The position numbers and the translations under genes were made by a program. Below, piece by piece: positions 8,819 through 54,096 of a stretch of 64,000 nucleotides of DNA; position 1 is the stretch's first letter, and each line of letters begins with the position of its first letter. The stretch lies in IMG/VR virus record IMGVR_UViG_3300045988_144754; one strand, given 5' to 3'. This DNA comes from a virus. The notes beneath the pieces were generated by a model. The model had not been told where the DNA came from, did not search any database, and saw only the letters and a list, made by a program, of their open reading frames with translations.

Positions 8819-9895
8819 TTAGACTCCCGCTTCGGCGATGGTCTTGGTAAGGATGGCCTCGTAGCCGGTGAGTTCGTCTTCGGTTACGATGTCGGCATAC
8901 TCCTGGCGCAAACGGTCGATACGCTCCTTCAGTCCCTTAACCCTTGCCTTGGTACTTGGCTTGTCCTTGCGGATGATATACTTGATGATGGCATCAGCTT
9001 CGGCCTTGTGCTTGGCTGCCTTGTCGCGTGCGGCTTTCACCTCTGGGCGGTCGGCTGCGATTTTCTCTGCTATGCTGACGGCAAAGCGAGGATCACGCCC
9101 TTGTGCTTTCTCATAGAAGGGCTTGAGCTGGGTACGCAGTTCCTGTGGCGACAAACTGAAAGTCTTTTCCACATAAGCGATGTATTCAGGATCGCCATTG
9201 CGCTGATTCAATCGGAGATACACTTCGCCCATTTCACGGTCCACTGCCATGTAAATATCGGGCAGGATTTGGCTCTCTATCTCTGTGGCGCGGGTGGCGA
9301 GCAGCGCTATCTCGGCTTCAGTGTAGAGGATGCCCTTGTTCTGCTGTTTCGACTTCTCGTTGGCTTCTGCCATCGTCTTGGCTTGTTCGGCCTTGCTTGC
9401 CATCTCGTTGCGGAGGTCACGCACGGTATTGACGCGCTGTTGAAGGGCAGGACTGAGGAAGGGACGTATCTGTGCGAGGTTGGGCATGGTGGCGGCGATG
9501 CTCTCGCCGTTGGGGTTGGCCACAATGCCGCCGTAGGTGAGTGGCTGTACGGCCACGTTGGGCTTTATCTCGGGAAAGAGCGACTGGCGGGCTTCGTCGA
9601 GGGCTTTCTGCTTCTGCTGTTCGTTGTATCGTTCCTGCTCCTCCTTGGTGGGTCGGCCCACGTGGCGCTTGGCTTCGGTGGTGGCGGGTATGGGAATAAT
9701 CTGCAGACTGGTGATCAACTGGCGCACACGGCGGTGGTAGTCACGAAAACGATGTGAGTCGCGCACGAAAGCCTGTGCGCTGGGCACGCTTTCGAGCAGT
9801 GTCAGTCCCTGCTCGAAGGCTTCTTTCTGTTCGGCTGTCAACATTCGGGTGTTGAGTGCCGGCGTGAGTATCTGGATGATTTGCTCTTTGTTCAT
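8819..9895 (-). CDS. hypothetical protein
   Basis: 358-aa ORF in the same operon. Confidence 0.45.
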   Translation of the reverse strand: MNKEQIIQILTPALNTRMLTAEQKEAFEQGLTLLESVPSAQAFVRDSHRFRDYHRRVRQLITSLQIIPIPATTEAKRHVGRPTKEEQERYNEQQKQKALDEARQSLFPEIKPNVAVQPLTYGGIVANPNGESIAATMPNLAQIRPFLSPALQQRVNTVRDLRNEMASKAEQAKTMAEANEKSKQQNKGILYTEAEIALLATRATEIESQILPDIYMAVDREMGEVYLRLNQRNGDPEYIAYVEKTFSLSPQELRTQLKPFYEKAQGRDPRFAVSIAEKIAADRPEVKAARDKAAKHKAEADAIIKYIIRKDKPSTKARVKGLKERIDRLRQEYADIVTEDELTGYEAILTKTIAEAGV

Positions 9896-9925: not shown

Positions 9926-11029
9926 TTAGAACATGAGTGGTGTGACGAATATCTTGCCGCCCTCCTGGTTGTTCTCGTAGCCGCCGGATTTGTCTGCAGC
10001 GGATGATGAGGGAGCGGTGGTGGAAGTGGAGGAGGACGCGGTGGTGTCGGCGGCTTCCTGAGCCTGCTTCTCGGCCTTGAGGAGGCGATAGACGGAATCG
10101 CGGAGCGAGATGGACTCGTTGTGCGCCAACAGTCGGGTAGCCTTGTCGAAGGAGATGACGGTGGTTCGCTCCACGAGGTAGGCAGTCATCAGTCGGCGCA
10201 CCTTGCGGAGGAGCTTGTCGCGGTCATCGGCGTGCTGCAGACGGGTGATGAGCTCGTCGCCGAACACGTCGGCTATGTATTCGTCCTGTATGTAGCGGAG
10301 GTCGGGCAACAGACGGATGAACTTGTCGCGGTTGTCGTAAACGTCGAGGTACTGCTGCAGGATGCTGCACGTGGGGATGAGGAGGTCGTGGTGCAGATAG
10401 TAGTACTTGCTCTCCTGCCACAACAGCACGATCTCCTCGATAGCTGCGAGGCGCTCGGTACTTTCGTCCTGTGGTATGTCGGATTTTCCGTCGTCAGGTA
10501 CTTCTGTACTTTCGTCCTTTGGTACTTCAGTACTTGCGCTGCCGTCTTTCGGGGCGGCTGTTTCGGCTGGCGTGTTGATGCTGACAGCCCAGTTTTCGAG
10601 AAGTATGAGGAGGTTGTTGAGCGACACCATGGCCTCTTTTTTATATCCCGCCACTCCCTTGTCGAGAAGTTTCTCTGTGGCTGGGTCATAGTCGGTAGAG
10701 GAGGCGATGTTGACGCCTGCGCCGTTGACCGAAAGGATTTGCTGGTAGGCGTATCGTGCCATAGCATCGTTGACCACCATACGCTGTGCGAGGACGAGGA
10801 GGACGCTCCATGGCTTCATGACATAGGTGCCGTCGGTCATCTGCTGATAGAAGCCGTCGCCGCCCAGGGTGGTGTAGTATTCGCAGAGCCGTGTGTAGAG
10901 CGGCTTACCCAACTTATCCTGCAGGAAGTCCTTCTCGCTGTTGTCGAGCACGCCCTGCAGGTTGGCTATCTCGTCCACGGCATTGCTGGGCAGGATGAGC
11001 CGGAGTTCTTGATTGGTGGAAAGTATCAT
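9926..11029 (-). CDS. hypothetical protein
   Basis: 367-aa ORF with an acidic Asp/Glu/Ser-rich middle region. Confidence 0.45.
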   Translation of the reverse strand: MILSTNQELRLILPSNAVDEIANLQGVLDNSEKDFLQDKLGKPLYTRLCEYYTTLGGDGFYQQMTDGTYVMKPWSVLLVLAQRMVVNDAMARYAYQQILSVNGAGVNIASSTDYDPATEKLLDKGVAGYKKEAMVSLNNLLILLENWAVSINTPAETAAPKDGSASTEVPKDESTEVPDDGKSDIPQDESTERLAAIEEIVLLWQESKYYYLHHDLLIPTCSILQQYLDVYDNRDKFIRLLPDLRYIQDEYIADVFGDELITRLQHADDRDKLLRKVRRLMTAYLVERTTVISFDKATRLLAHNESISLRDSVYRLLKAEKQAQEAADTTASSSTSTTAPSSSAADKSGGYENNQEGGKIFVTPLMF

Positions 11030-14135: not shown

Positions 14136-14690
14136 TTACGACTCAATCTCGGGAGGGTTGCCACCAGGCTTCTGCTCGCCGCCACCCGTGGTGCCGGAAT
14201 CGCCTGTGCCGGGAGCTGCGGGAGCATCCGTTGCAGCAGCATTGCCCACTCGCTTGAACGAGCCGTGCTGTGCGAAGGCAGCGTTGAACTTCTTGGAGAA
14301 GTCGATGGCAACACCTGCGGTGAGGTCCTTTGTGGTGAGGTCGGCGGCGGTAATCTCTCGGTTCACGTCAACGTCCTCGCCTGCTGCCTTACGTGCTTCG
14401 AGCTTCGCCTTGAGCTGGCTCTGAGTGAGCGAGCCGCTGACGGTAGGACGTACCGTCATGCCCTCGGCAGACACCTGTACCTTGGTGCCCAGTGCCAACA
14501 GAAGCGGCAGCTTTTTCTCCAACTGCGTCATCACGGCCATTACGTCCGCTGCGCCTACTGTAGAGTCCTGCGCCATGTAGTCGCAAAACTCAGGAAATGA
14601 CATCTGCTGCAAGTCAACGATCTGTGCGCTTGCCAGCTTCTCCTGTGTGAGGTGGTTCACACGAACTGCAATTCTTGTTTTAATTGCCAT
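14136..14690 (-). CDS. HU-like DNA-binding protein (Bacteroidetes type)
   Basis: N-terminus MAIKTRIAVRVNHLTQEKLA...FPEFCDYMAQDSTVGAADVMAVMTQLEKKLPLLLALGTKVQV resembles Bacteroidetes HU-family proteins. Low-complexity Gly/Thr-rich tail. Confidence 0.5.
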   Translation of the reverse strand: MAIKTRIAVRVNHLTQEKLASAQIVDLQQMSFPEFCDYMAQDSTVGAADVMAVMTQLEKKLPLLLALGTKVQVSAEGMTVRPTVSGSLTQSQLKAKLEARKAAGEDVDVNREITAADLTTKDLTAGVAIDFSKKFNAAFAQHGSFKRVGNAAATDAPAAPGTGDSGTTGGGEQKPGGNPPEIES

Positions 14691-14762: not shown

Positions 14763-14822
14763 ATGTGCTAACACTTTTCATCAAATGTGCTAACACTTTT
14801 CGTCAAATGTGCTAACACATTG
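14763..14822 (-). promoter_or_regulatory. three tandem 22-bp sites AATGTGctaaCAC (GTG-N4-CAC inverted-repeat cores)
   Basis: Three units at exact 22-bp spacing in the 5' leader of the operon starting at 14690. Same site family as 40356..40437. Confidence 0.5.
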
Positions 14823-14905
14823 CTTTTTTTCGACTACAAATGTAGGGAGAAAATTTTGAGCGGTGTGGACATAAATTCAGAACAGCGTGAGCTGTGCTTG
14901 CTCCA
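14822..14905 (-). promoter_or_regulatory. promoter module downstream of the methyltransferase gene (TACATTTG -7 box)
   Basis: Matches the Bacteroidetes TAnnTTTG consensus. Duplicated at 12925..13010. Confidence 0.45.
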
Positions 14906-15647
14906 ACTTGATGCGCTTGCAAGCCTTGTCGTAATACTCCTTGTTGAGCTCGAAGCCGATGAAGTTGCGCTTCTCTTTTATGCAAGCAATGGCGGTGGTG
15001 CCGCTGCCCATGCAGTTGTCTAATATGGTGTCGCCCTCGTTGGAGTAGGTACGGATGAGGTACTGGATGAGAGCGACAGGTTTTTGGGTGGGGTGGAAGC
15101 TGTTGTGAATATCCCTCTGAAATAAGACAATATCGGTTGGATATTTTTCGTCGGTTATAATATCCTTCACTTTGCCATAATTTCCGTAACATCTGTTGGT
15201 TTGCTCTTTCTCTTGCTTTCCTCTGCTGTGATTGCGTTCATGTGGAAGACATTTGCACATTTGTGGATGATAGGTGGGCTGTCCGTCGTAGAAAACGGAA
15301 ATAATCTCCGTTTGCTTTAGAGGCATCTTCTTTGTGTTCAAAAAGCCAGTTGTACGGCATTTATCCCACGTGATATTATAGCGCCACATCTTTTCATTGC
15401 TCATCATCAGTTTTGCCGTGAACATACCCTGTCCGAACAATATTATAGCCGCATTGGGCTTACTGATACGAAGATATTGCTCCCATAAAGAATCAAGTGG
15501 AATAATACTATCCCATCCTCCTCCTTCGCTCTGCTTATTGAGGACACCATACGGCAAATCACACACAATGCAATCCACGCTTCCGTCGGGAATCCTTTTC
15601 ATTCCTTCGAGGCAGTCTTCATTATATATCTTGTTCAGCTCTATCAT
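14877..15647 (-). CDS. DNA methyltransferase, N6-adenine/N4-cytosine (PF01555-like, beta class)
   Basis: CIVCDLPYG (DPPY-type motif IV) near the N-terminus and NCMGSGTTAIA (motif I) near the C-terminus. Paralog of 42701..43450. Confidence 0.8.
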   Translation of the reverse strand: MIELNKIYNEDCLEGMKRIPDGSVDCIVCDLPYGVLNKQSEGGGWDSIIPLDSLWEQYLRISKPNAAIILFGQGMFTAKLMMSNEKMWRYNITWDKCRTTGFLNTKKMPLKQTEIISVFYDGQPTYHPQMCKCLPHERNHSRGKQEKEQTNRCYGNYGKVKDIITDEKYPTDIVLFQRDIHNSFHPTQKPVALIQYLIRTYSNEGDTILDNCMGSGTTAIACIKEKRNFIGFELNKEYYDKACKRIKLEQAQLTLF

Positions 15648-20376: not shown

Positions 20377-21285
20377 TTATCGCATGGCTTCCTCAAGAGT
20401 TCTAATATAAGGTATGGACTCGTTGCGCACAATATCAAGAAAAAGTTGTGCCGACCGCTTCATCGGCACGTCCTTCATCCAGTGGACATTGCTCATCAGG
20501 TCGTGCTCAAGCCCCACGATGGGACGGACGGTAAGGGTAGGGTGGTTCTTTAGGTACAATTTAGGCATGAAAGTGACACAATGGGATTCTTCCACGATGG
20601 CAAGGTCCTCGTTGGGGTCGCTCACAATACATTTTACATTCAGTTTCATAAAATCGTATTTCAGATATTTCTGAAAGGTATTGAACACCCTTTCGCCTAC
20701 ATCGGGCATAATCACGTTGTGCCTTAACAAATCCTCGTATGACACCTTTTCCAGTCGGGACAAAGGATGGGTGTCCCGCATCATCGCATAGATACGGAAA
20801 GGAATACAGGGCTCAGACTCGATGCCCTCATTCTTGTAGGCAGTGTTCAGAGTAAAGGCGAGGTCGAGGGAGTGGCTTCTCAACAGGTGGTTCAGACTCG
20901 TCGCCTTGGTAAACTCGGCGTTGATTCTTACATTCGGGTATCGTTCCATGAAGATAAGTGCCGCCATCCGAATATAAGGTGCGATAAAAGAGCCTACACC
21001 TATCCTCAGCTCGCCCACAAGGCAGTTGTTGAGCGCGTTGATTTGTTCCTTGCAGTCGTCCGTCTGCTTCAGTATCTCCTTGGCGCGAGGCAAAAGCGCC
21101 TCGCCACTCTCAGTGAGCATAATGCTGTGCGAGGTGCGGATAAGCAACTTGCACCTCAGTTCATCCTCAAGAGCCTTGATGTGTTGACTGATGGCGGACT
21201 GAGTGACACAACAGCGCATGGCTGCAATACTGAACGATAAAGTTTCGGCTACATATACAAATGAGCGCAAATGACGAAGTTCCAT
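20377..21285 (-). CDS. LysR-family transcriptional regulator
   Basis: N-terminal HTH MELRHLRSFVYVAETLSFSIAA...QSAISQHIKALEDELRCKLLIRTSHSIMLTESGEALL is a canonical LysR substrate-binding-type regulator. 302 aa. Confidence 0.8.
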   Translation of the reverse strand: MELRHLRSFVYVAETLSFSIAAMRCCVTQSAISQHIKALEDELRCKLLIRTSHSIMLTESGEALLPRAKEILKQTDDCKEQINALNNCLVGELRIGVGSFIAPYIRMAALIFMERYPNVRINAEFTKATSLNHLLRSHSLDLAFTLNTAYKNEGIESEPCIPFRIYAMMRDTHPLSRLEKVSYEDLLRHNVIMPDVGERVFNTFQKYLKYDFMKLNVKCIVSDPNEDLAIVEESHCVTFMPKLYLKNHPTLTVRPIVGLEHDLMSNVHWMKDVPMKRSAQLFLDIVRNESIPYIRTLEEAMR

Positions 21286-38738: not shown

Positions 38739-39269
38739 CTATTCGGGGTCGGGGGATTTTTCTTTATTCATATCTTCCTCATCCCGCATGAGTTCCTTCA
38801 ACTTGATGTTGAAGTGGCGCTCGGTCTTGTCGGCCACTATCTTCTGCATCACTCGCGCCCACCCTGCTCCGTTGCAGGTGCTTTCGTTCTCAAGGATACT
38901 GACAAACTGGACTCCGCAGTAAAGGGCGGCGAGATAATTGGCGAGATGGAGCGGATTCATGTAGTCGAGTACGATGGTGTCGATGGCGGTGGCGAGGAAG
39001 ATGGCGAGGATGAGGACGGAGAAGTCCTGCACCATCTTGGTCATCTTCTTGGATTTCAGCTTGCCGTCCATCTGGCATTTAGGATTCTTCTTGATAGCCT
39101 CACGAAATCGGCTGTAGATACGGCGGTTGAGCCGCCATGCCGTGTAGCAATCCAGTAGAAGGGCGAAGAAGCATACACCGATGTAGTTGAGTGAGGGTTC
39201 GATGTAACACCACAGCAGACCTATTGCGGCTGCTATGAATCGGGTAATGTTGGGTAAGATCGTTTGCAT
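38739..39269 (-). CDS. membrane protein
   Basis: 176 aa with several hydrophobic helices. First gene of the minus-strand block. Confidence 0.4.
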   Translation of the reverse strand: MQTILPNITRFIAAAIGLLWCYIEPSLNYIGVCFFALLLDCYTAWRLNRRIYSRFREAIKKNPKCQMDGKLKSKKMTKMVQDFSVLILAIFLATAIDTIVLDYMNPLHLANYLAALYCGVQFVSILENESTCNGAGWARVMQKIVADKTERHFNIKLKELMRDEEDMNKEKSPDPE

Positions 39270-39467: not shown

Positions 39468-40274
39468 ATGAGTCAGATAACACAAGGCACATTGGCACGC
39501 ATCGACAAATGGTTGGCGCAAGGCATCAGTATCGAGACGATGTTCCCGAACCTGGAGCAGCGCTATCGTATGCAGATATGTGCGGAATATTACAAAAGGT
39601 GGGTGCAGAACAAGGACATCGACCCTCGTACCACCTGTCGCAACATTGCCCGACGTGACTACGAGTTGTTCATCAACCAAGCCGCACAGGGCAACAAGGA
39701 GGCTGTGGCGATGATTCAGGCTCTGGGCATCACGGTGGACGATGAGGGTAATGTGAAAAATCGCACCATCACGGAGCTCAACAACGACGTGGCGGTGTGC
39801 AATCATATCATCCGCTTCTTCACCACCGACGAGAGTCCGCGCCACAAGGCCATGTACCTCAATTCGGCAGAATGGTTGATACGCACGGGCAAACAGCAGA
39901 ACAACGACCGTGCCGTGGATAAGGGTATGCAGGCCTTGGCCAACATATACGGCAACTTCATCGAGGAGAAGGATGCTACGGACGAGATGCCGGACATGAG
40001 TCGCATTGCCATCACGCAGGACGTGAGCATCGTAAAGCGCGACCGCATCAACTACACTGAGGAGGAGAAGCTGCGTCTGGCCCGCAAGTATGGTCTTACG
40101 GCAAAGGATATGCGGGATATAGCCGAAGAGGAATCCCTGCAGGCTGTAGGCAAAGACACTGAGCCGGACTACTTCGAGTACATGGAGCAGAAGGACGAGG
40201 AGGATGTGATTAGACACGGGTACATGAAAGAAAGCGAATTGACGGATTCGGAAAAGACGGATGATGCGGAATGA
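39468..40274 (+). CDS. hypothetical protein with acidic C-terminus
   Basis: 268-aa ORF. It is more protein-like than the longer antisense ORF 39285..40412. Confidence 0.45.
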   Translation: MSQITQGTLARIDKWLAQGISIETMFPNLEQRYRMQICAEYYKRWVQNKDIDPRTTCRNIARRDYELFINQAAQGNKEAVAMIQALGITVDDEGNVKNRTITELNNDVAVCNHIIRFFTTDESPRHKAMYLNSAEWLIRTGKQQNNDRAVDKGMQALANIYGNFIEEKDATDEMPDMSRIAITQDVSIVKRDRINYTEEEKLRLARKYGLTAKDMRDIAEEESLQAVGKDTEPDYFEYMEQKDEEDVIRHGYMKESELTDSEKTDDAE

Positions 40275-40355
40275 GTGAAAATGAAACAGAAGTATCTGTT
40301 TGATGCAAACAATGGGCATCGTTTGATATAAACAATGGGCATCGTTTGAAAAGCG

Positions 40356-40437
40356 AATGTGCCGACACATTAAAACGAAGGTGTTAGCACTTTTTGCCAA
40401 AAGTGTTAGCACATTTTACCAAAAGTGTTAGCACATG
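40356..40437 (+). promoter_or_regulatory. four GTG-N4-CAC inverted-repeat sites at about 23-bp spacing
   Basis: aATGTGccgaCACATt, then three GTGttagCAC units, upstream of the PAPS-reductase-family gene. Confidence 0.5.
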
Positions 40438-40540: not shown

Positions 40541-41392
40541 ATGTTAAACGAACAACTGCAGAAAAAGGTAAAACAGTCGATAAAACTCCTGCAGAGTGTG
40601 CAGAAGCGATACGACGGCGAGATAGAGATAGCATACTCGGGCGGTAAGGACTCCGACGTGCTCCTTCAACTGGCGAAAGAGGCCGGCATCAAGTATCGGG
40701 CCATATACAAGAATACGACCATCGACCCGCCAGGCACGTTGGGGCACGTCAGGGAGATGGGAGTGGAGATACTGAGGGCCAAGACTTCCTTCTTTCATCT
40801 CGTGGCGCAGAAAGGATTTCCATCTCGCTTTACTCGTTTCTGTTGTGAAAAACTGAAGGAATATAAGGTGCTCGACAAAAGTATTATCGGCGTGCGCAAG
40901 GCTGAGAGCCGGAAACGAAACGAAATATACAACGAGCCGACAGAGTGCCGATACTACGGAGCGAAGAAAGAGGAAAATCACGTAGAACAGATTTATCCTA
41001 TTCTGGAATGGACCGATGAGGACGTGCGCGACTTCATTATAGACAGAAAGTTGAAACTCGCACCCATTTATTACAATTCGGGGGGGCAAATCGACGTGTC
41101 GAAACGTCTCGGCTGCATGTGCTGCCCTCTCGCATCAAGGCGCAAGCGCATTATCGAGTTTCAGAAATATCCCAAGATAGCAAAGGCGTATCTCCGTGCG
41201 GGGCAACGATTTATGGAAACGCATCCTGACAGCAAGGCGTGCCAGAGGTACGACAACGTTTACGAATGGTTCACCCGCGACGTGTTTTACAGCTCCAATG
41301 CAGATTGGAACAAGGTAAGCACAGGGCTGTTCGGTAAGCCGGACTTCAAGAAGTTCTTGGAGGATAAGTTCGGTATTGACTTGACATTATAA
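40541..41392 (+). CDS. PAPS reductase-family protein (phosphoadenosine phosphosulfate reductase / DndC-like PP-loop ATPase)
   Basis: PP-loop SGGKDS, a RFCCEKLKE motif, and ILEWTDEDVRDFI, the PLxxWTxxDVWxYI signature of the CysH family. Confidence 0.7.
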   Translation: MLNEQLQKKVKQSIKLLQSVQKRYDGEIEIAYSGGKDSDVLLQLAKEAGIKYRAIYKNTTIDPPGTLGHVREMGVEILRAKTSFFHLVAQKGFPSRFTRFCCEKLKEYKVLDKSIIGVRKAESRKRNEIYNEPTECRYYGAKKEENHVEQIYPILEWTDEDVRDFIIDRKLKLAPIYYNSGGQIDVSKRLGCMCCPLASRRKRIIEFQKYPKIAKAYLRAGQRFMETHPDSKACQRYDNVYEWFTRDVFYSSNADWNKVSTGLFGKPDFKKFLEDKFGIDLTL

Positions 41393-41413
41393 ACAACACA
41401 AAACAATAACGAT

Positions 41414-41743
41414 ATGGCAAAGATTATTTATTTCGGGACAGAAGGCAACGGGCAGGCAGGACACTACCCTATGGGTATCGACAAATACCTTACCCTCGAA
41501 GAATGCAAAATATGGACTGAATGTGACAACGAGACGTGGATCAATAACATCTACAAGAATCCCGGTCGTCACTTGATAAAACATCACGGTGTTGGATATA
41601 CCAACTATGCCGTGCCGTTCTCCGTAGATGATGAAAGGGGTATGTCGCATACTGAAGTATTTTGGGAAGGAATACACTCCGAGGAGGAAATGATAGAGCT
41701 TATTAAAAGCAACACTTTCTTGAAAAAACAATTCAAAATGTAA
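41414..41743 (+). CDS. hypothetical protein
   Basis: 109-aa ORF. Confidence 0.4.
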   Translation: MAKIIYFGTEGNGQAGHYPMGIDKYLTLEECKIWTECDNETWINNIYKNPGRHLIKHHGVGYTNYAVPFSVDDERGMSHTEVFWEGIHSEEEMIELIKSNTFLKKQFKM

Positions 41744-41749
41744 GCGACA

Positions 41750-42031
41750 ATGATAACAATAAAAATCAAGACATGGAAGGACTGGAAGAAGGACTTCATC
41801 GATTGGGTAAAGGAGCCAGGGCGCAAGACGTGCAAGGAGTATGTGGACTATATGGAGGCTTTACAAAAACAGACTCTCTACCAAATAATAGAGGACACTT
41901 GTGATAAATACAACAATATGCGTGAGGATCAAATCAAAGACATCACAGAAGCAGTAGAAAAATGCGTGGCTGCTTGTGCTGAAGAAACACGCAAGTTAAT
42001 CGATGAATGTCAGCCCGCAAAATTCTTCTAA
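41750..42031 (+). CDS. hypothetical protein
   Basis: 93-aa ORF. Confidence 0.35.
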   Translation: MITIKIKTWKDWKKDFIDWVKEPGRKTCKEYVDYMEALQKQTLYQIIEDTCDKYNNMREDQIKDITEAVEKCVAACAEETRKLIDECQPAKFF

Positions 42032-42072
42032 GACTGGAACTTTCATTATAAGCAACAAAAACTCTACACAAC

Positions 42073-42681
42073 ATGAATAACAACATAAAAAGAAAGGACT
42101 GGGTAGGCGGCTCGGCTGCTGTATTCAAGACGTTGGGCGCAAGCAACCATACGAATGCGGATAGACAGCGGGAGGATTACTATGCCACTGAGCCAAAGGC
42201 GACGGAATGGCTGTGTAAGCTGGAGAGGTTTGAGGGCAGGATTCTTGAGCCTTCGTGTGGCGAGGGTCACATGAGTAGAGTATTGGAGGCAGCAGGGTAT
42301 GAGGTGGTGAGCCGCGATCTTGTGGATAGAGGGTACGGTGAGGTTGCCGACTTTCTCTCTATTGACAATATGGAATGGGACGGCAACATCGTTACCAATC
42401 CTCCATACAAATATGCGCAGCAGTTTGTGGAGAAGGCTCTGAGCATCATCCCCGAAGGAAAGAAGGTGGCGATGTTCCTGAAGCTGACTTTCCTCGAAGG
42501 CAAGGGTCGACGCGCTCTCTTCCGTTCTACCCCACCCATTCGTGTTTGGGTAAGCTCGTCAAGACTGAAATGCGCTATGAATGGCGACTTCGACAAATAC
42601 GGCAGCAGCGCTGCGGCTTACGCCTGGTTCGTGTGGGAGAAAGGATATAAAGGCGAGACAACTGTGAAATGGTTTAACTGA
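42073..42681 (+). CDS. small SAM-dependent methyltransferase with NPPY motif (putative N6-adenine DNA MTase)
   Basis: LEPSCGEGHM (motif I-like) followed by NPPYKYAQQF (motif IV). Confidence 0.55.
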   Translation: MNNNIKRKDWVGGSAAVFKTLGASNHTNADRQREDYYATEPKATEWLCKLERFEGRILEPSCGEGHMSRVLEAAGYEVVSRDLVDRGYGEVADFLSIDNMEWDGNIVTNPPYKYAQQFVEKALSIIPEGKKVAMFLKLTFLEGKGRRALFRSTPPIRVWVSSSRLKCAMNGDFDKYGSSAAAYAWFVWEKGYKGETTVKWFN

Positions 42682-42700
42682 TAGAAAAAAACAATAGAGC

Positions 42701-43450
42701 ATGATAGAACTGAATAAGATATATAATGAAGACTGCCTGGAAGGGATGAAAAGGATTCCGGACGGGAGTGTGGATTGCATCGTGTGCGATTTGCCATATG
42801 GCACTACCGCTTGTGCTTGGGATAGCGTTCTTCCGTTTGATAAGTTGTGGGAGCAATACAGAAGAATTACAAAACGAAACGCTCCTATTGTTCTGTTCGG
42901 AAATGAACCTTTTAGCACATTTCTAAGAGTCTCAAATATTAAGTATTGGAAATATGACTGGATTTGGGACAAGAAAATGAAAGGGGGTTTCTTGAACGCA
43001 AAGAAAAGACCCCTCAAGCAGTATGAAAATATATCTGTTTTCAGTTATGGTGATTGCATCTACAATCCTCAAATGACTAAAGGTGTATTTAGAAACAAAA
43101 AGTCGTATAATAATAGAGAGGGAAATGGGGATGGCGTGTATCGTAAGTTTGGAAACATTGATGTAAAAAATGACATTTACTATCCTTCAAACATTTTGGA
43201 GTATAGCAATGCCGCACAGAAAGGCAAGATCCATCCCACACAAAAGCCCGTAGATCTCATTCAGTACCTCATCCGTACCTACTCCAATGAGGGCGACACC
43301 ATATTAGACAACTGCATGGGTAGCGGCACAACTGCCATTGCAGCCATCCGCGAGAAGCGTAACTTCATCGGCTTCGAGCTCAATAAGGAGTATTACGACA
43401 AGGCTTGCAAGCGCATTAAATTGGAGATGGCGCAGCCGACCCTCTTCTAA
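42701..43450 (+). CDS. DNA methyltransferase, N6-adenine/N4-cytosine (PF01555-like)
   Basis: The first 34 aa and last 60 aa are nearly identical to the 14877..15647 protein. Motifs CDLPYG and MGSGTT. Confidence 0.8.
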   Translation: MIELNKIYNEDCLEGMKRIPDGSVDCIVCDLPYGTTACAWDSVLPFDKLWEQYRRITKRNAPIVLFGNEPFSTFLRVSNIKYWKYDWIWDKKMKGGFLNAKKRPLKQYENISVFSYGDCIYNPQMTKGVFRNKKSYNNREGNGDGVYRKFGNIDVKNDIYYPSNILEYSNAAQKGKIHPTQKPVDLIQYLIRTYSNEGDTILDNCMGSGTTAIAAIREKRNFIGFELNKEYYDKACKRIKLEMAQPTLF

Positions 43451-43484
43451 CAACATAACTAACAATTAACACAAAAATCAACAC

Positions 43485-43715
43485 ATGAGTAACAACCGAC
43501 ACAAATACTTTAACAAGGTACCGCCGTTCAAGCCGGACCCCGAGCACTACACTCGCAAGCAGCGCTCATGGAAGGCGAAGGAATCCTACGAGACGGAGGA
43601 TGATGCTTGGGAATATCTCAATCAGAATCCGAAGCTACTGGCGCAGGGCATGACGGTGTACCGATGCAGGACGTGCAACAAATGGCATGTGGGGCATAAG
43701 ACGCACAGCGAATAA
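43485..43715 (+). CDS. small zinc-ribbon-like protein
   Basis: 76 aa with CRTCNKWHVGH. Confidence 0.35.
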   Translation: MSNNRHKYFNKVPPFKPDPEHYTRKQRSWKAKESYETEDDAWEYLNQNPKLLAQGMTVYRCRTCNKWHVGHKTHSE

Positions 43716-43745
43716 GAAACACAACACAAAATCAGGATAACAACA

Positions 43746-45740
43746 ATGCAGCAAGCACATAACATTTACTTAACCAAATTCCAGCAGCAGTCGCTATACA
43801 TGGGAGCCAAGGACGAGCGAGTGATTGCTGCCCGTCGTGTGGGTAAGACCGACGGACTGGTGGCTCCCTATGTCTGGACGGCATCAAACTCCATGCCTGG
43901 TATGCTGGGTGCATGGGTGGCGGTGAGCCGTCAGCAAGGCTTCGGCAAGACCATACCAAGCACCATGGCCGCCATGGAACGTATGTTCGGCTTTACGCAG
44001 GGCATACACTTCGGTTGGGGTCGCCCACCGAAACATGCTCGCGAGAGTATCTTCAAACCTAAGAACTACGACAACTACATCTGGTTTGCCAATGGTTCCG
44101 GTTGGGTGCTTATCTCGCTCTCGCAGACCGCCTCTGCAAACTCTTACACGTTCTCGGCCATGGTAGGCGACGAGGCGAGGTTCTTTCCCTATAAGAAAGT
44201 AACGGACGAGTTGATGCCGGCGCTTTCAGGACAGACGCATCCCTTGGGCGACATCAACTTCTCCGACCACAACCCGATGTATAAAAGTACACGCTTCCTA
44301 TCCGATGCCTCGCTCACAGCCAAAGGGTCGTGGCTGGAGAAAGAGGAGGAAAAGTTGGACTTGACGGTGGAGACGGGAACATACAAGGGCCATACCTACC
44401 GATGGGTGCAGGAGCAGTTGGAAGATTACGCCAACAAGGTGATACGCTACAACGACCTGCTGTATAACGCCAAGAAGACCAGTCACTCGGTTCATGTGGT
44501 GCCGAAGGAGTTGCGCAAGATGATCCGTGCCGTGGCTCTGAAGATGATGAAGCATGAGGGACAGTTCCGCATTATGCCCAACCATGGCCAACACGTCACA
44601 AAAGGCATGGTGGAGATGGCCGTGAACTATAAACTCATTTCGCAGGACGATGCCGAACTGATTTACGATTACGAATACCTTATCACGCCGGAAGAGGATT
44701 TCGAGATGCAGATGTTCCAGCGCTCGAAGAAATTCTCCGAAAACTATCTGCGTGAGCTGCGCCGTGTGGCTTTCTGTGTGCGCCGTGCGTCATCGCTCGA
44801 CAATGTGGACATTCTGGGTGAAGACTATATCCGTCAGATGAAGCGAGATCTTCCACCCTACACTTTCGCCGTTTCAATTCTAAATGTAAAGATTCAAAAA
44901 AGTAATGACGGCTTTTACTCCAACCTCGACATCGATCATGTCCACGGATATATCCCCGACGAGATAGACCCTTTATCGTCTGCAAAATTCACTACGCAAA
45001 AGGTATCGGGCATCATCGGTGGTAAGAAAGTCACGAGCGAGAGTTATCAACCCGACTTCAAGGAGTTGGGCGAGCGAAACGACTCGCGCCAGGATTCCGA
45101 CTGCATCAACTCCCTTCCTCTGTATATAGCCCTCGACTATAATGCCAATATCAATACGTTGGTGGTCGGGCAGATGTATGAGCGTGACGGCATGGAATGT
45201 CTGAACGTCATCAAGAGTTTCTATGTGAAGAACGAGCGCAAGCTGCGTGATGTGATAGCCGATTTCTCCGACTATTACGCACCGAAGCGAGCCATCAACC
45301 GTGACGTGACGTATTTCTATGATGCCACGGCAAAGCAGGGAGCGTCGTATGCTTCGTCGGACGAGCGATTCTACATGACCGTGATTGAAGAGTTGGAGAA
45401 GCACGGTTGGAACGTGACGGCCATAGATATGGGTGCTCCCGAAAAGCACGAGGTGAAGCACAAAATCATCAACGACGGCTTGGCTCACCTCTCCTACCCT
45501 GCCATCCGCATCAACCAACCGAACAACCCCGATCTAATCATTGCCATGCAGCTCTGTGAGGTGCAGATTTCGTACAAGGGATTTCACAAAGACAAAAGCC
45601 AAGAGAAGAAGCCCGAGAGCGAGGACACGCTGCCCTTGCAGCAACGTACCGACTTCACGGATGCCTTCGATACGCTGTACTTAGGTTGCAAGTTCTTCCG
45701 AGTCGGTGGCGGTTGGTTTGTGCTGCCGAGTGGCAGATAG
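43746..45740 (+). CDS. terminase large subunit candidate
   Basis: 664 aa with an N-terminal Walker A-like AARRVGKTDG. It is the last gene of the plus-strand block and is followed by a bidirectional terminator. Confidence 0.5.
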   Translation: MQQAHNIYLTKFQQQSLYMGAKDERVIAARRVGKTDGLVAPYVWTASNSMPGMLGAWVAVSRQQGFGKTIPSTMAAMERMFGFTQGIHFGWGRPPKHARESIFKPKNYDNYIWFANGSGWVLISLSQTASANSYTFSAMVGDEARFFPYKKVTDELMPALSGQTHPLGDINFSDHNPMYKSTRFLSDASLTAKGSWLEKEEEKLDLTVETGTYKGHTYRWVQEQLEDYANKVIRYNDLLYNAKKTSHSVHVVPKELRKMIRAVALKMMKHEGQFRIMPNHGQHVTKGMVEMAVNYKLISQDDAELIYDYEYLITPEEDFEMQMFQRSKKFSENYLRELRRVAFCVRRASSLDNVDILGEDYIRQMKRDLPPYTFAVSILNVKIQKSNDGFYSNLDIDHVHGYIPDEIDPLSSAKFTTQKVSGIIGGKKVTSESYQPDFKELGERNDSRQDSDCINSLPLYIALDYNANINTLVVGQMYERDGMECLNVIKSFYVKNERKLRDVIADFSDYYAPKRAINRDVTYFYDATAKQGASYASSDERFYMTVIEELEKHGWNVTAIDMGAPEKHEVKHKIINDGLAHLSYPAIRINQPNNPDLIIAMQLCEVQISYKGFHKDKSQEKKPESEDTLPLQQRTDFTDAFDTLYLGCKFFRVGGGWFVLPSGR

Positions 45741-46565: not shown

Positions 46566-47192
46566 TTACAAGAACACTGGCAGTCTGCGCCACACGCCAC
46601 CATTCGGCTGAAACTCCTCCTGCCATTCCCGATATTCCACTTCAAACTTTGCACCATAAAAAGCCAAACCTTTGAGATGAAGGCTCTCGATGAATTTCTC
46701 CTGCTCCTCACGAGTCATAAAGTCATTAGGCATGAGGATGATGCGGTTGCTACGGACATGGATGAAGAACTCTGGCGCAAAATCTCGCTTCGTCAGCATC
46801 TTTTTAATCGCCGCATAGTCGCACTTGTTTTTAGGCGAAAAGTTTATGCCATCCACATAGGTAAAGAGTTGATTGTAGTGGACCATTACTTCCTCGTTGA
46901 GAAACATCCATCTACCAGAAGTGTAGATATATAGCTGCTTGATGTTAGGATAATCATGGCGCAGGTGTGAGCATATATCTATGATACCTGTCACATAGAA
47001 TGGGTCTCCACCAGTGAGCATAACGGTATGTGCAGCCTTCAGCTCCTCTACGGTAGCCACTGGCACCGTATCGAGGTCGTACTGCTTGTTGCAGCAAAAC
47101 GGACAAGAGTTACCACACCATCTGTTAATCATCAAATGAATGGCTCCCTTATCGGCTCCCGGCTCGTCAGTATATTTACGTTTTGTTTCCAT
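46566..47192 (-). CDS. radical SAM 4Fe-4S protein (NrdG/QueE/PflA-activase-like)
   Basis: CGNSCPFC is a CxxxCxxC cluster, followed by TGGDPF. Confidence 0.6.
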   Translation of the reverse strand: METKRKYTDEPGADKGAIHLMINRWCGNSCPFCCNKQYDLDTVPVATVEELKAAHTVMLTGGDPFYVTGIIDICSHLRHDYPNIKQLYIYTSGRWMFLNEEVMVHYNQLFTYVDGINFSPKNKCDYAAIKKMLTKRDFAPEFFIHVRSNRIILMPNDFMTREEQEKFIESLHLKGLAFYGAKFEVEYREWQEEFQPNGGVWRRLPVFL

Positions 47193-51538: not shown

Positions 51539-51667
51539 TCTATAAATCCTTTTATATTTAATTAGAAACCAAAGATACAACCTCCGACATATTTCTGAGC
51601 CATATAAACGGTCACAGGGATGCAACCATCATAGGCTTCTTTCGGGATAATTCTCAATTTCATGTCT

Positions 51668-51846
51668 TATTCAAATTTATATACTATATGCGGTGTGGTA
51701 TTGCCCAGTCCGTCGCGAGGGTCGGCAATACCTCTCCCGACCATTGTCGTCACAGCATTGGCTATCAGCTTGCGCGGTCGGTACTTTACGAGGCCCTTGC
51801 CGTCCTTGCCGGAACGTACCCATCCGATGTAATACTTGTCAATCAT
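51668..51846 (-). CDS. small repeat-borne ORF (MIDKYYIGWVRSGKDGKGLVKYRPRK...)
   Basis: 58-aa paralog of 49661..49783 inside repeat R1-prime. Confidence 0.35.
51678..51843. repeat. direct repeat R1-prime
   Basis: See 49607..49779. Confidence 0.7.
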
Positions 51847-52040
51847 ATTCTATCAATACAATGGTGTGCTGTCCGTGCTCGTCGTAGAGTCCTGCCCATC
51901 CGTCGTAGCGTGCGGACAGTGCGGTGGAGTACCCCCGGACGTGGGCAGAGATAGGATGTGCGTTGCACGAAAGGGATTTGTTTAATCATACGTTATCAAT
52001 ACCATGTTGTCTTTGCCAACCGAGGTGAGAGTGTTGGTTG

Positions 52041-52051
52041 TCCCCCCCCCC
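52041..52051. repeat. poly-C homopolymer tract (11 nt)
   Basis: tgtcccccccccccgttt, seen directly. Confidence 0.9.
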
Positions 52052-52137
52052 GTTTATCTCCATTCGCTGACAGAAGCGTCCGTTGGAGGGATGCTTGCGG
52101 TCGGACGGATTGTCGGGGTCACGGCCTCGGAAGGCTG

Positions 52138-52635
52138 CTATGCGAAAGTGTAGCATAGGAGGTTGTCTTTTGTTACTGTTGTTATCGAATTGCTCCACGC
52201 CCACGGACTTGGGCGGTGATACTTGTCGCTGTATTTGCACCCTCCCCGGTCGCCATGTTCACGACGGAAGGCTTTGGCTTCCTCGGTGCGGTAGTGGACG
52301 AGGACGGAACGATTAATCATACTCTATCAATATTTTCGGTTTATCCACGTCGTGACCTTTACCTCCCCCGGCTATGCACAAGGCTATGCCGCGCGGCGAC
52401 ACGATGATGCCGTTCTGCGAGGGGCTGTAGGAGCCGAGGATGATGGGGCGAGGGTTGTTATTCATATATTACAATTACGCCAGTGGCTTTGAAATTTGCT
52501 CCTTGGGTTGAAACGTCAAGAACATCGTATGCACCCTTCTTGAAATAATTGGCTTTGATAGTGCGTGATGTGCCATCGGATTCGGTGTTGAAAGGGAATG
52601 TCATAATTCTACTGCTACAAAGAACACGTCGCTGC
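52138..52635 (-). pseudogene. frameshifted fragments of a C5-cytosine methyltransferase C-terminal half (TRD, motifs IX and X)
   Basis: Three overlapping short ORFs in three frames. They carry SRTIKANYFKKGAYDVL (compare RTLTARYHKDGSEILI), SPRGIALCIAGGGKG (compare M.HhaI GISITLSAYGGG), and a degenerate TEEAKAFR...WSNSITTV (motifs IX and X). Confidence 0.45.
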
Positions 52636-52779
52636 AATCGGTGCGCGACATGATAGTTATTGCTATACCGTGAAATGCTCCGTTGAAGCGTTCTGCGCTG
52701 AACATCGAGGCAGGGCAGGTGAGCAAACTACCCCCCAATCATATCAGCTATGATACGGATTACACGGTCGGGTGGATTA

Positions 52780-54096
52780 TCAGTTCTCATTCTTCCTCTC
52801 CATATTCTCCTTGAACATTTCTCCGAAACCATCCCAATAATGAGCGTCCATCCATTCGGGCGAGGATAAAAACTGCTCATACATCATTGTCGCAGGTATC
52901 GTCCGTAGGTATTTCTCGCAAGCCTTAACGTCTTTGTCCCACAAATCCATCCGCTCCATTTCTATCTGAAAATACGTCTTGAGGAACATTGCCGCCTCAT
53001 GTGTCGGTGGCAGGTCGAATTGAAGGAATAAGGCATTGTCGGAGTCGTTTGCCTTGAGGAACTTGCTCACGGCATCGTCCTTGAGGAAATAGCGGTCAGA
53101 CACTTCCTCTTCGAGCACGTCTTCCAATCGGGTAAGCAGCTCGAAAGGTTCTGGGAACTGATAGTCGAATGCCACGTCTCGGCGCATGGAGAGGCAGAAA
53201 ACACGGTCGCGGTTTTGTGGCACACCGTAGTTCTTGGCGTTGAGTCGCGTCCAACGGCTCACATAGCCGAGCGACGAGAGTTTGTCGAGCCACTTCTGAA
53301 AGTCTGGCAAGAACTTCTGGCTTACCAGTGCCGCCACGTTCTCCTGCAAGAGATACTTCGGGCGAAGCACCTCCACAGCATCCGCCACACGCCAAAGCAG
53401 TGCGCTTCGGGTGTCGCTGCCCTCCTGCAAGCCCATTTGCTTGCCCGCCTGACTGATGTCCTGGCAAGGCGAGGAATAGGTGAAGAGGTCTACTTCGCGG
53501 CCTTCGAGCGAGCTTTCCACCTCGTGCCAGTCAATCTTGGTGATGTCGCCCAGGGCGCAGTCGGCAAACTGAGGGAAGACGAGGTTGTGCATCTGACAGG
53601 CGTATTTGTCGATGTCGCTCCATCCTATACATGTCCATCGGAAGTCGGGATGCCACTCGCGGAGCACATCGGCTGCCATAAGCTGCGAGTCGTAGCCGGA
53701 GAACGTGGTAAGGAATATCTTCTCCTCGTTCTTGTTGGCTGCGGTGGGCGGCAGGGCGGGTAATGTGTCTTCGAGGTCGTCGAAGAGCGAGAGTTGCTTT
53801 TGCTTACGAGGTTTGGGCGTAGGATAGAAAAGTTGCTCGTAGATGTGGGCCAACACGTCCACCACGATGCTGTTTCCGGCTTGCTTGTACTGCTGTGAGG
53901 CAGATATAGCCATGTCTTCGGGCTTGCCCTTGCCTTTCCAGTCGGGCAGACGTTCGGCTGCTTGAGCATTGCTGCTCTGCATCGTGCCGATTACATTGTC
54001 ACGAACGCCCATCAGACGAAAACACTCCTTGGGTGTGAGCTTGCGGATGGCATAGCTCTTGATGGTGCGGTCGGTGAAATTGAGTTTTGTAATCAT
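52780..54096 (-). CDS. DNA (cytosine-5)-methyltransferase with permuted motif order
   Basis: N-terminus carries motif IX (IRKLTPKECFRLMG) and motif X (QYKQAGNSIVVDVL). Then come motifs I (FSGYDS), IV (SSPCQDIS), VI (LQENVAAL) and VIII (QNRDRVFCL). Confidence 0.65.
   Translation of the reverse strand: MITKLNFTDRTIKSYAIRKLTPKECFRLMGVRDNVIGTMQSSNAQAAERLPDWKGKGKPEDMAISASQQYKQAGNSIVVDVLAHIYEQLFYPTPKPRKQKQLSLFDDLEDTLPALPPTAANKNEEKIFLTTFSGYDSQLMAADVLREWHPDFRWTCIGWSDIDKYACQMHNLVFPQFADCALGDITKIDWHEVESSLEGREVDLFTYSSPCQDISQAGKQMGLQEGSDTRSALLWRVADAVEVLRPKYLLQENVAALVSQKFLPDFQKWLDKLSSLGYVSRWTRLNAKNYGVPQNRDRVFCLSMRRDVAFDYQFPEPFELLTRLEDVLEEEVSDRYFLKDDAVSKFLKANDSDNALFLQFDLPPTHEAAMFLKTYFQIEMERMDLWDKDVKACEKYLRTIPATMMYEQFLSSPEWMDAHYWDGFGEMFKENMERKNEN

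Follow-up and report, generated by a model that had tools for sequence, protein, structure and literature searches.

Why would a phage carry a gene of the 3'-phosphoadenosine 5'-phosphosulfate (PAPS) reductase fold among DNA methyltransferase genes and ahead of its terminase? The question is raised by a viral stretch of 64,000 nucleotides (IMG/VR record IMGVR_UViG_3300045988_144754), the whole of which we call the window, in which positions 40541-41392 of the plus strand encode a stand-alone PP-loop protein of 283 amino acids (aa). An earlier note, made from the letters alone, assigned this gene to the CysH/DndC family and grouped it with two small open reading frames (ORFs), a methyltransferase with an NPPY motif and a PF01555 methyltransferase. 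The gene content and coordinates are as described there, with all ORFs on the plus strand, and the two small ORFs and both methyltransferases do lie in one block with the terminase. Phage genes annotated as PAPS reductase or cysH are among the auxiliary metabolic genes most often reported from viromes, and have been tied to sulfur cycling, bee health and human longevity. We find that the window protein is no such reductase. Profile comparison places it closest, among characterised proteins, to the catalytic domain of BrxP, a protein of type 4 bacteriophage exclusion (BREX) systems. Furthermore, its reading frame holds a hypervariable G tract that the earlier note had missed.

The PP-loop protein matches Pfam PF01507 (PAPS_reduct; E 1.2e-13) and phrog_424 (E 1e-32), and the three motifs already pointed out in it are present: SGGKDS (residues 33-38), RFCCEKLK (99-106) and LEWTDEDV (155-162). 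Conservation was read from an alignment of 64 homologues reaching down to 30% identity. Within the PP-loop, S33, G35, K36, D37 and S38 never vary, and the conservation of G34 is 90% or more. Elsewhere, R99, C101, C102, G117, R119, E122, R126, P153, Y177, R189, G191, C192, C195, P196 and P211 are invariant, and C136 is nearly so. No conserved cysteine lies C-terminal to C195 in this alignment, C234 of the window protein not being conserved. An AlphaFold model (predicted local distance difference test 96) has a strand at residues 28-32 followed by a helix at 36-48, and SGGxDS follows the opening beta strand of a Rossmann-like fold, as in the PP-loop ATP pyrophosphatase superfamily. The best matches among solved structures were CysD, iron-sulfur (Fe-S) adenosine 5'-phosphosulfate (APS) reductases, CysH, the PAPS domain of flavin adenine dinucleotide synthase and TtuA, with template-modelling scores of about 0.4-0.6 and at most 20% identity. 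In a profile search, the CC pair of the phage protein aligned with Cys139/Cys140 of the Pseudomonas aeruginosa APS reductase (2goy), two of the four cluster ligands of that enzyme. The protein is basic (isoelectric point 9.3) and is predicted to combine an intact ATP-type PP-loop with a CC...CxxC cluster site, while lacking the catalytic thiol of the reductases.

The fold named in the earlier family assignment stands, whereas CysH and DndC themselves do not, and comparison by profile and structure with DndC, CysH and QueC left none that fits. The protein scored 29.4 bits in the CysH model NF002537, against a cut-off of 154, and the ECG[LI]H-type catalytic cysteine is missing, so that clustering with bona fide CysH was not borne out. 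In the model of assimilatory APS reductase (TIGR02055) it reached 17.8 bits, where 235 are required; the CC...CxxC ligands are in place, but a catalytic cysteine beyond the cluster is missing. Because the catalytic C-terminal cysteine is absent and the SGGKDS loop is canonical, the PP-loop protein is not CysH. DndC was rejected as well (TIGR03183, 15.9 bits against a cut-off of 290; PADLOC E about 3e-5; DndD/E-like neighbours absent). QueC gave no Pfam or NCBIfam hit, and viral QueC models appeared in Foldseek only at E > 1e-3. A weak neighbour of the radical S-adenosylmethionine (SAM) type had prompted the idea of a 7-deazaguanine pathway, for which no signal of QueC, QueE, FolE, QueD or DpdA was found. 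Near the terminase, a 208-aa protein (46566-47192, minus strand) that recurs in some relatives has the radical-SAM motif CxxxCxxC, with a Pfam match (E 1.7e-4) that does not reach the cut-off. In the Bacteroides LoVEphage, a radical-SAM gene lies about 1.3 kb downstream of the PAPS-reductase gene.

BrxP gave a very different result. In the same PADLOC search that returned DndC so weakly, and SspD with no hit at all, the BrxP profile matched residues 4-246 of the PP-loop protein with an E-value of 9.5e-20 (profile positions 108-366 of 779). Alignment of the phage family with seven BrxP sequences by hhalign had a probability of 99.8% and an E-value of 2.5e-29 over 190 columns, pairing phage residues 26-228 with BrxP 157-370. 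The invariant residues of the phage family (SGGKDS, R-x-CC, GxRxxESxxR, W157, Y177 and RxGCxxCP) are all invariant in BrxP. Cellular relatives were sought in 185,579 species genomes, one genome per species, and the statements that follow hold among the matches listed. The best match was 35% identical to the PP-loop protein. The nearest relatives were a few stand-alone homologues in metagenome-assembled genomes of Bacillota and then proteins of 750-810 aa, whose genes are followed by genes for proteins of about 1400 aa and then about 750 aa. These longer relatives score as BrxP (E 1e-215 to 1e-249), and the genes that follow them are BrxC and PglZ.

The phage protein and BrxP thus share a homologous PP-loop/Fe-S catalytic domain, but they differ in size and setting. 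The phage protein has 283 aa and BrxP about 780, and the C-terminal helical extension of the phage protein (residues about 229-283) is its own rather than BrxP's. BrxP is encoded in a defence island; the PP-loop gene is phage-borne and has methyltransferases and a terminase as neighbours, with no brxC, pglZ or brxL nearby. BREX type 4 is found in Bacteroides, Prevotella, Parabacteroides and Butyricimonas, and in Bacteroides the minimal set for phosphorothioation consists of BrxP, BrxC and a cysteine desulfurase (PMC12914056). While the phage gene family itself is known and is commonly mis-annotated as cysH, neither its kinship to BrxP nor homopolymer switches in phage DNA-modification genes are reported in the literature retrieved. 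A large gut-phage family of "cysH" genes cannot encode sulfonucleotide reductases, and corresponds to the catalytic core of BREX type 4 phosphorothioation. What was a vague annotation can now be tested as a counter-defence function, and this in the very phylum for which phosphorothioate synthesis by BREX type 4 has been demonstrated.

An unexpected feature of the gene emerged from its relatives, some of which match it over 850 nucleotides and not 849. All of these breaks fall at a tract of seven G residues at 41080-41086 (plus strand; codons S179-G180-G181, run TCGGGGGGGC), which is in frame (ON) in the window. It is the sole G run of at least 7 in the window, and GGG is the rarest glycine codon (27/493). 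Tract lengths were compared across a set of 67 unique alleles with identities of at least 65%. They range from G4 to G9, with 30/67 alleles in frame and 37/67 out of frame (OFF). The OFF products are mostly 229, 228 or 213 aa long and lose C192xxC195, and the addition or removal of a single G restores full length in 36 of the 37. Alleles from different contigs that differ by 0-1 substitutions over about 830 nt nevertheless differ in the tract (e.g. G5/G7/G9). The shifted tail predicted for a G8 allele is found unchanged in two independent protein clusters, P0089 (116 members) and P0116, and both ON and OFF alleles were seen across several source datasets. The tract is missing from homologues of less than 65% identity.

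The NPPY methyltransferase gene of the relatives varies in a similar way. In many of them it contains an uninterrupted C6-C9 tract at T153-P154-P155, in frame as C8 or C6 and out of frame as C7 or C9; 25/73 alleles are truncated (OFF), and 22 of these 25 are repairable. At the same codons, the tract of the window (42530..42538, plus strand) is interrupted (CCCCACCC followed by C), and this allele is "locked ON". The homologous methyltransferase gene of a second lineage (L067) has a G8 tract (5923-5930) at a different codon position. Across the relatives, G/C runs of at least 7 are concentrated in this cassette and in a region about 7-9 kb past the start of the gene for the large terminase subunit (TerL). 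The pattern looks like the signature of contingency loci of the phase-variable type, where an in-gene repeat sets the frame and varies faster than its flanks. If the G and C tracts are true switches, the lineage would offer a case of phage DNA-modification genes under phase variation. Other variable tracts were also seen. One, GTTGTCGCATAC-G7..9-TAAATGTTCGCA, lies about 7.6 kb beyond the TerL start in at least 18 unique loci (among L088-L167); a further one reads GCTATCCGAAAC-G7..8-TATTCAAAAGAG, and still others fall in PF01555 methyltransferase homologues.

We compared the interval between the holin and terminase genes in relatives from IMG/VR, 80 loci being fetched by the PP-loop protein and 80 by TerL. 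In the 68 TerL-anchored relatives with a complete interval, its length runs from 2.1 to 6.0 kb, and occupancy varies: the PP-loop gene is present in 56/68, the NPPY methyltransferase in 60/68 and a PF01555 methyltransferase in 40/68. The two small ORFs, of 109 and 93 aa, are gained and lost independently, with the 109-aa ORF present in some relatives that have no PP-loop gene. There are also two gene orders. In one, the gene of a 268-aa protein is followed by the PP-loop gene and, at the far end, by a 76-aa ORF and TerL. In the other, the PP-loop gene comes first, followed by the 268-aa protein gene, the 76-aa ORF, the methyltransferases, the 109-aa and 93-aa ORFs and TerL. In related phages, the PP-loop gene (61-68% identical) occurs at other sites as well (6001-6855 in L001-L003; 6001-6849 in L004). 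One of these phages has it between homologues of 9926-11029 and 8819-9895, structural genes that are adjacent in the window, and another has it between DUF3310 and ThyX.

The module of the earlier note does not survive this comparison as a fixed functional unit, as each gene is present or absent independently and their order differs. Nor was a conserved partner of the PP-loop gene found in 25 distant, diverse loci when three co-directional neighbours on each side were considered; those neighbours comprise ANT, YopX, DnaB, Tad2-like and DUF1599 proteins, one C5 methyltransferase and one D12 methyltransferase. Links between PAPS-type and methyltransferase genes do recur without being obligatory. 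In L067, the NPPY-methyltransferase homologue (5399-6004) overlaps the start of the PP-loop gene by ATGA, which suggests that this pair is translationally coupled, and other links are found in the LoVEphage, in a fusion of a SAM methyltransferase to a PAPS domain (P0191) and in a Vibrio phage fusion. A Rosetta-stone argument from P0191 was rejected; its methyltransferase is not detectably related to the NPPY enzyme of the window. We see the interval as a hotspot where independent DNA-marking cassettes collect ahead of the terminase, and not as one machine.

What, then, might the PP-loop gene do there? We propose a role in counter-defence: the gene would belong to a phase-variable cassette that places a mark on phage DNA before it is packaged, in this case a sulfur mark that is most likely phosphorothioate; we regard this as plausible, though somewhat short of an even chance. 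A lineage of large gut siphoviruses would keep a changing set of DNA-marking genes between holin and large terminase. A late promoter controlled by repeats would express the PP-loop gene along with the methyltransferases and the terminase. In the BrxP-like core, the PP-loop would adenylate the substrate with ATP, and a [4Fe-4S] cluster bound by CC...CxxC would deliver sulfide. The enzyme would thus sulfurate replicated phage DNA ahead of packaging, most likely as phosphorothioate, drawing its sulfur from a host cysteine desulfurase and perhaps relying on a host ATPase of the BrxC, SspC or DndD type. Progeny DNA marked in this way could pass as "self" to defences based on phosphorothioate (BREX type 4, Ssp, Dnd), and the neighbouring methyltransferases would play the same role against ordinary restriction. 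The G tract of the PP-loop gene and the C tract of the relatives' NPPY methyltransferase would flip ON and OFF at high frequency, and the resulting mixture of marked and unmarked phages would hedge the population's bets against two kinds of host, one attacking unmarked DNA and the other, with modification-dependent nucleases, attacking marked DNA. Taken to its end, the proposal describes a "phasevarion" of a widespread lineage of human-gut phages: a BrxP-like sulfur-inserting enzyme and an adenine methyltransferase would be turned ON and OFF by hypermutable G and C tracts, and each burst would be released with varied epigenetic coats, a bet hedge between restriction of unmarked DNA by some hosts and of phosphorothioated or methylated DNA by others. 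To this more specific claim we give only tentative credence, clearly less than even.

Several observations weigh against the proposed phosphorothioate cassette. The parts peculiar to BrxP, namely its N-terminal domain, a ferredoxin-like cysteine cluster and DUF4007, are missing from the phage protein, and the near-invariant fifth cysteine of the phage family, C136, is absent from BrxP, which hints at other chemistry. BrxC is essential for phosphorothioation in Bacteroides (PMC12914056), and the phage loci do not have it: neither an ATPase of the BrxC, SspC or DndD type nor a cysteine desulfurase adjoins the gene in the window, the 160 related loci or the 25 distant loci. The presence of the PP-loop gene is also uncorrelated with that of the methyltransferases in the 68 relatives, and no prophage copy was found among the matches listed from the 185,579 species genomes. 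As for the switch, homopolymer lengths in metagenome assemblies can be wrong, and a flank-anchored control on A/T runs yielded too few matches to be informative.

Other explanations have to be set beside this one. The enzyme might make a different modification: like TtuA, TtcA or ThiI, it would use an adenylated intermediate to thiolate or otherwise derivatise a DNA base, the nucleotide pool or tRNA, with no link to phosphorothioate defences. TtuA-type [4Fe-4S] tRNA thiolases are among the fold matches, and C136, the missing ATPase partner at the loci examined, the occurrence of relatives in archaeal viruses and beside ThyX, MazG and DUF1599 "nucleotide modification" genes, and the fusion of one relative to a SAM methyltransferase of a non-DNA type all point this way. 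However, the similarity to BrxP is far above that to any tRNA thiolase, and the sole phage PAPS-domain protein tested so far counters a phosphorothioate system, so that we consider a different modification rather unlikely. A decoy is less probable still, and in our view distinctly unlikely. Such a protein would mimic the host's BrxP, DndC or SspD and titrate the ATPase or the sulfur donor, leaving phage DNA unmodified, which would suit a truncated copy of a defence-system subunit that has no partners of its own, and PAPS reductases have been noted in phage anti-defence operons controlled by Aca (PMC13551039). Yet the catalytic and cluster residues are strictly conserved down to 30% identity, which a pure binder would not need, and a terminase-linked, probably late operon is an unusual place for an inhibitor that acts early.

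The reading common in the virome literature, an auxiliary metabolic gene whose CysH-type PAPS/APS reductase boosts host sulfate assimilation, has the PAPS_reduct match and the fold matches to CysH and APS reductases in its favour. We judge it extremely improbable. The ECG[LI]H thiol is missing and no conserved cysteine follows CxxC; SGGKDS stands where the aligned APS reductase 2goy has FSGAED; the scores in the two reductase models given above are far below their cut-offs; the gene is dispensable and often frameshifted; and its genomic context consists of DNA methyltransferases and a terminase. Finally, the tract variation could be an artefact of sequencing or assembly, or pseudogene decay, with no switch behind it. 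Several sequencing platforms are prone to errors in G/C homopolymers of 7-9 bases, and most alleles come from one IMG/VR collection (3300045988). However, OFF alleles also occur in 3300029522, 3300029828, 3300029459 and 3300029566, and ON alleles in 3300029717, 3300029550 and 3300029633; OFF alleles are present, too, in Logan and ENA protein clusters of more than 100 members. TerL is intact in all 80 loci, and the 36 of 37 OFF alleles that a single G repairs carry no other lesion, which speaks against decay. In addition, the run has persisted through about 30% sequence divergence although it uses the rare GGG codon, and in two lineages the methyltransferase genes have tracts, each at its own position. 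We therefore consider an artefact or decay unlikely.

A functional precedent for a phage-borne counter to phosphorothioate defence comes from Vibrio. A two-gene region of Vibrio phages, one gene of which is a PAPS-domain::Dam fusion, overcame Dnd (bioRxiv 10.1101/2021.05.05.442762). The fusion is p0018 of Vibrio crassostreae podophages, and it confers Dnd resistance jointly with its neighbour p0019 (Piel et al. 2022; bioRxiv 10.1101/2021.05.05.442762). As in the window, a phage domain of the PAPS-reductase fold is linked to a DNA adenine methyltransferase at a swappable anti-restriction locus. In contrast to the window, where the two are separate genes with two ORFs between them, the Vibrio domains are fused; the Vibrio domain is DndC-like and the window protein BrxP-like, and the structural similarity between the window protein and the Vibrio-phage PAPS proteins is remote (Foldseek E about 3e-6). 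DndC and SspD share the PP-loop, the PAPS-reductase fold and an Fe-S cluster with the window protein but have little or no detectable similarity to it in the PADLOC search, and the window lacks their DndD/E or SspB/C partners. CysH and the APS reductases are alike in fold, and in the APS reductase the cluster ligands align with CC...CxxC; the phage protein differs from them in lacking the catalytic C-terminal cysteine, in its intact ATP-type PP-loop and in scoring far under the cut-offs of their models.

For the tracts, the precedents are the hypermutable polyG tracts of Fletchervirus and the phasevarions of bacteria, which likewise consist of in-gene G/C homopolymers with reversible ON and OFF frames. 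Bacterial phase-variable genes are often DNA methyltransferases. In the Campylobacter phages of Fletchervirus, the genes switched by polyG encode receptor-binding proteins, and a 2025 review describes phage phase variation as exceptional and known from Campylobacter phages (PMC11959909). The lineage of the window differs in that the variable genes are DNA-modification genes, the host phylum is probably another one, and the switching is predicted from allele sequences.

The PP-loop gene lies in an island of eight co-directional plus-strand genes, bounded by the minus-strand holin gene (38739-39269; PF05105) and by minus-strand genes beyond 45845. The first gene of the island (39468..40274) encodes an acidic 268-aa protein with no assigned function. 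It has no match in Pfam, PHROGs, NCBIfam, PADLOC or PDB sequences, but its gene is present in every complete holin-to-TerL interval of the relatives, and the protein may be a candidate small terminase. Between this gene and the PP-loop gene, the upstream operator array noted earlier is real. On the plus strand, two direct 23-nt repeats (GTTTGATRYAAACAATGGGCATC) at 40298..40343 are followed at 40366..40434, about 107 bp upstream of the PP-loop gene, by three repeats at 22-nt spacing with the core AAAGTGTTAGCAC. A second copy of the triple 22-nt-spaced array is found at 14765-14821 on the minus strand, directly after a PF01555 paralogue and about 75 bp upstream of the gene at 14136-14690 (minus strand) in the structural region. 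The array pattern has 8 matches in the window against 1.56 expected, and 8 was reached by 0/100 shuffles. As the triple array stands at both sites, it is therefore taken as a shared regulatory element, which suggests one regulator common to the cassette/terminase block and the structural block.

From the PP-loop gene through the large terminase, seven co-directional genes occupy 40541-45740 with intergenic gaps of 6-41 bp, and no credible terminator was found between them. The proposed operon with two DNA methyltransferases is upheld to the extent that the block is compatible with joint transcription. A sigma-70 promoter scan gave matches at chance level only, with a model that is unsuited to Bacteroidota, and Rfam had no matches in the window. 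Following the PP-loop gene are the independent cassette genes for the 109-aa ORF (41414-41743) and the 93-aa ORF (41750-42031), both without a family match in the four libraries searched, and then the NPPY methyltransferase (42073-42681) and the PF01555 methyltransferase (42701-43450). These genes form a co-directional block with the terminase, and a basic 76-aa ORF (43485..43715; CxxC...H; phrog_15216, function unassigned), which is kept in relatives, lies between the PF01555 gene and the terminase. The large terminase subunit itself (43746-45740, 664 aa) was recognised by a library match and by its resemblance to annotated TerL proteins, those of Microcystis phages (about 30% identity) and those of Porphyromonas phages (about 25%). 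Elsewhere, the window looks like a siphovirus genome, with genes for a tape measure, a tail fibre, a head protease, ThyX, a guanylate-kinase-like protein and a PriCT primase.

The window holds four methyltransferase genes in total. The NPPY enzyme, of 202 aa and class-I SAM type, matches phrog_799 ("DNA methyltransferase"; E 1e-69) and has motif I (EPSCGEG) followed by NPPY. Its matches to Pfam and to the catalytic domain of M.TaqI (E 0.3) are weak, and it is probably an N6-adenine (or N4-cytosine) DNA methyltransferase. The PF01555 protein of the cassette is an N6/N4 DNA methyltransferase of the beta class with 249 aa (E 3.9e-31; 109.2 bits against a gathering cut-off of 26.7), and its DPPY-type motif is DLPY at residues 30-33. 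Outside the cassette, both on the minus strand, are a PF01555 methyltransferase (14877-15647) that is 62% identical to it and a C5-cytosine DNA methyltransferase (52780-54096; PF00145, E 1e-49). The C5 enzyme had been predicted for the window; the "third PF01555 copy" predicted with it turned out to be the second. Residues 5-87 of the C5 methyltransferase ORF match the C-terminal part of Dcm models and residues 154-352 the N-terminal part, which suggests a permuted or rearranged enzyme. Just downstream of its gene, a 1.1-kb stretch without a long ORF (51630-52780) contains a C10 run at 52042-52051 (G10 on the minus, locally coding strand); short ORFs in this stretch resemble fragments of C5 methyltransferases in different frames, and it has no Rfam match.

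Palindromes are avoided in the window. CTAG does not occur at all, against 87.5 sites expected under a Markov model, and the relatives have 61 CTAG sites in 1.3 Mb. Other palindromes are depleted (observed/expected 0.34 for GATC, 0.40 for GGCC and 0.47 for CCGG), and some 6-mer palindromes are missing altogether, for example CTCGAG (0 against 15), ATGCAT (0 against 12) and GAATTC (0 against 10). The view that this phage is heavily invested against restriction holds good, with four methyltransferases, zero CTAG and strong palindrome avoidance.

The host is probably a member of the Bacteroidota, because the gene leaders in 39468-64000 are A-rich and without a Shine-Dalgarno sequence and because the phage has Bacteroidota phage relatives. 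No tRNA genes are present. It should also be noted that a full LysR-type regulator (HTH_1 and LysR_substrate) is encoded at 20377-21285 on the minus strand, within otherwise phage-like DNA.

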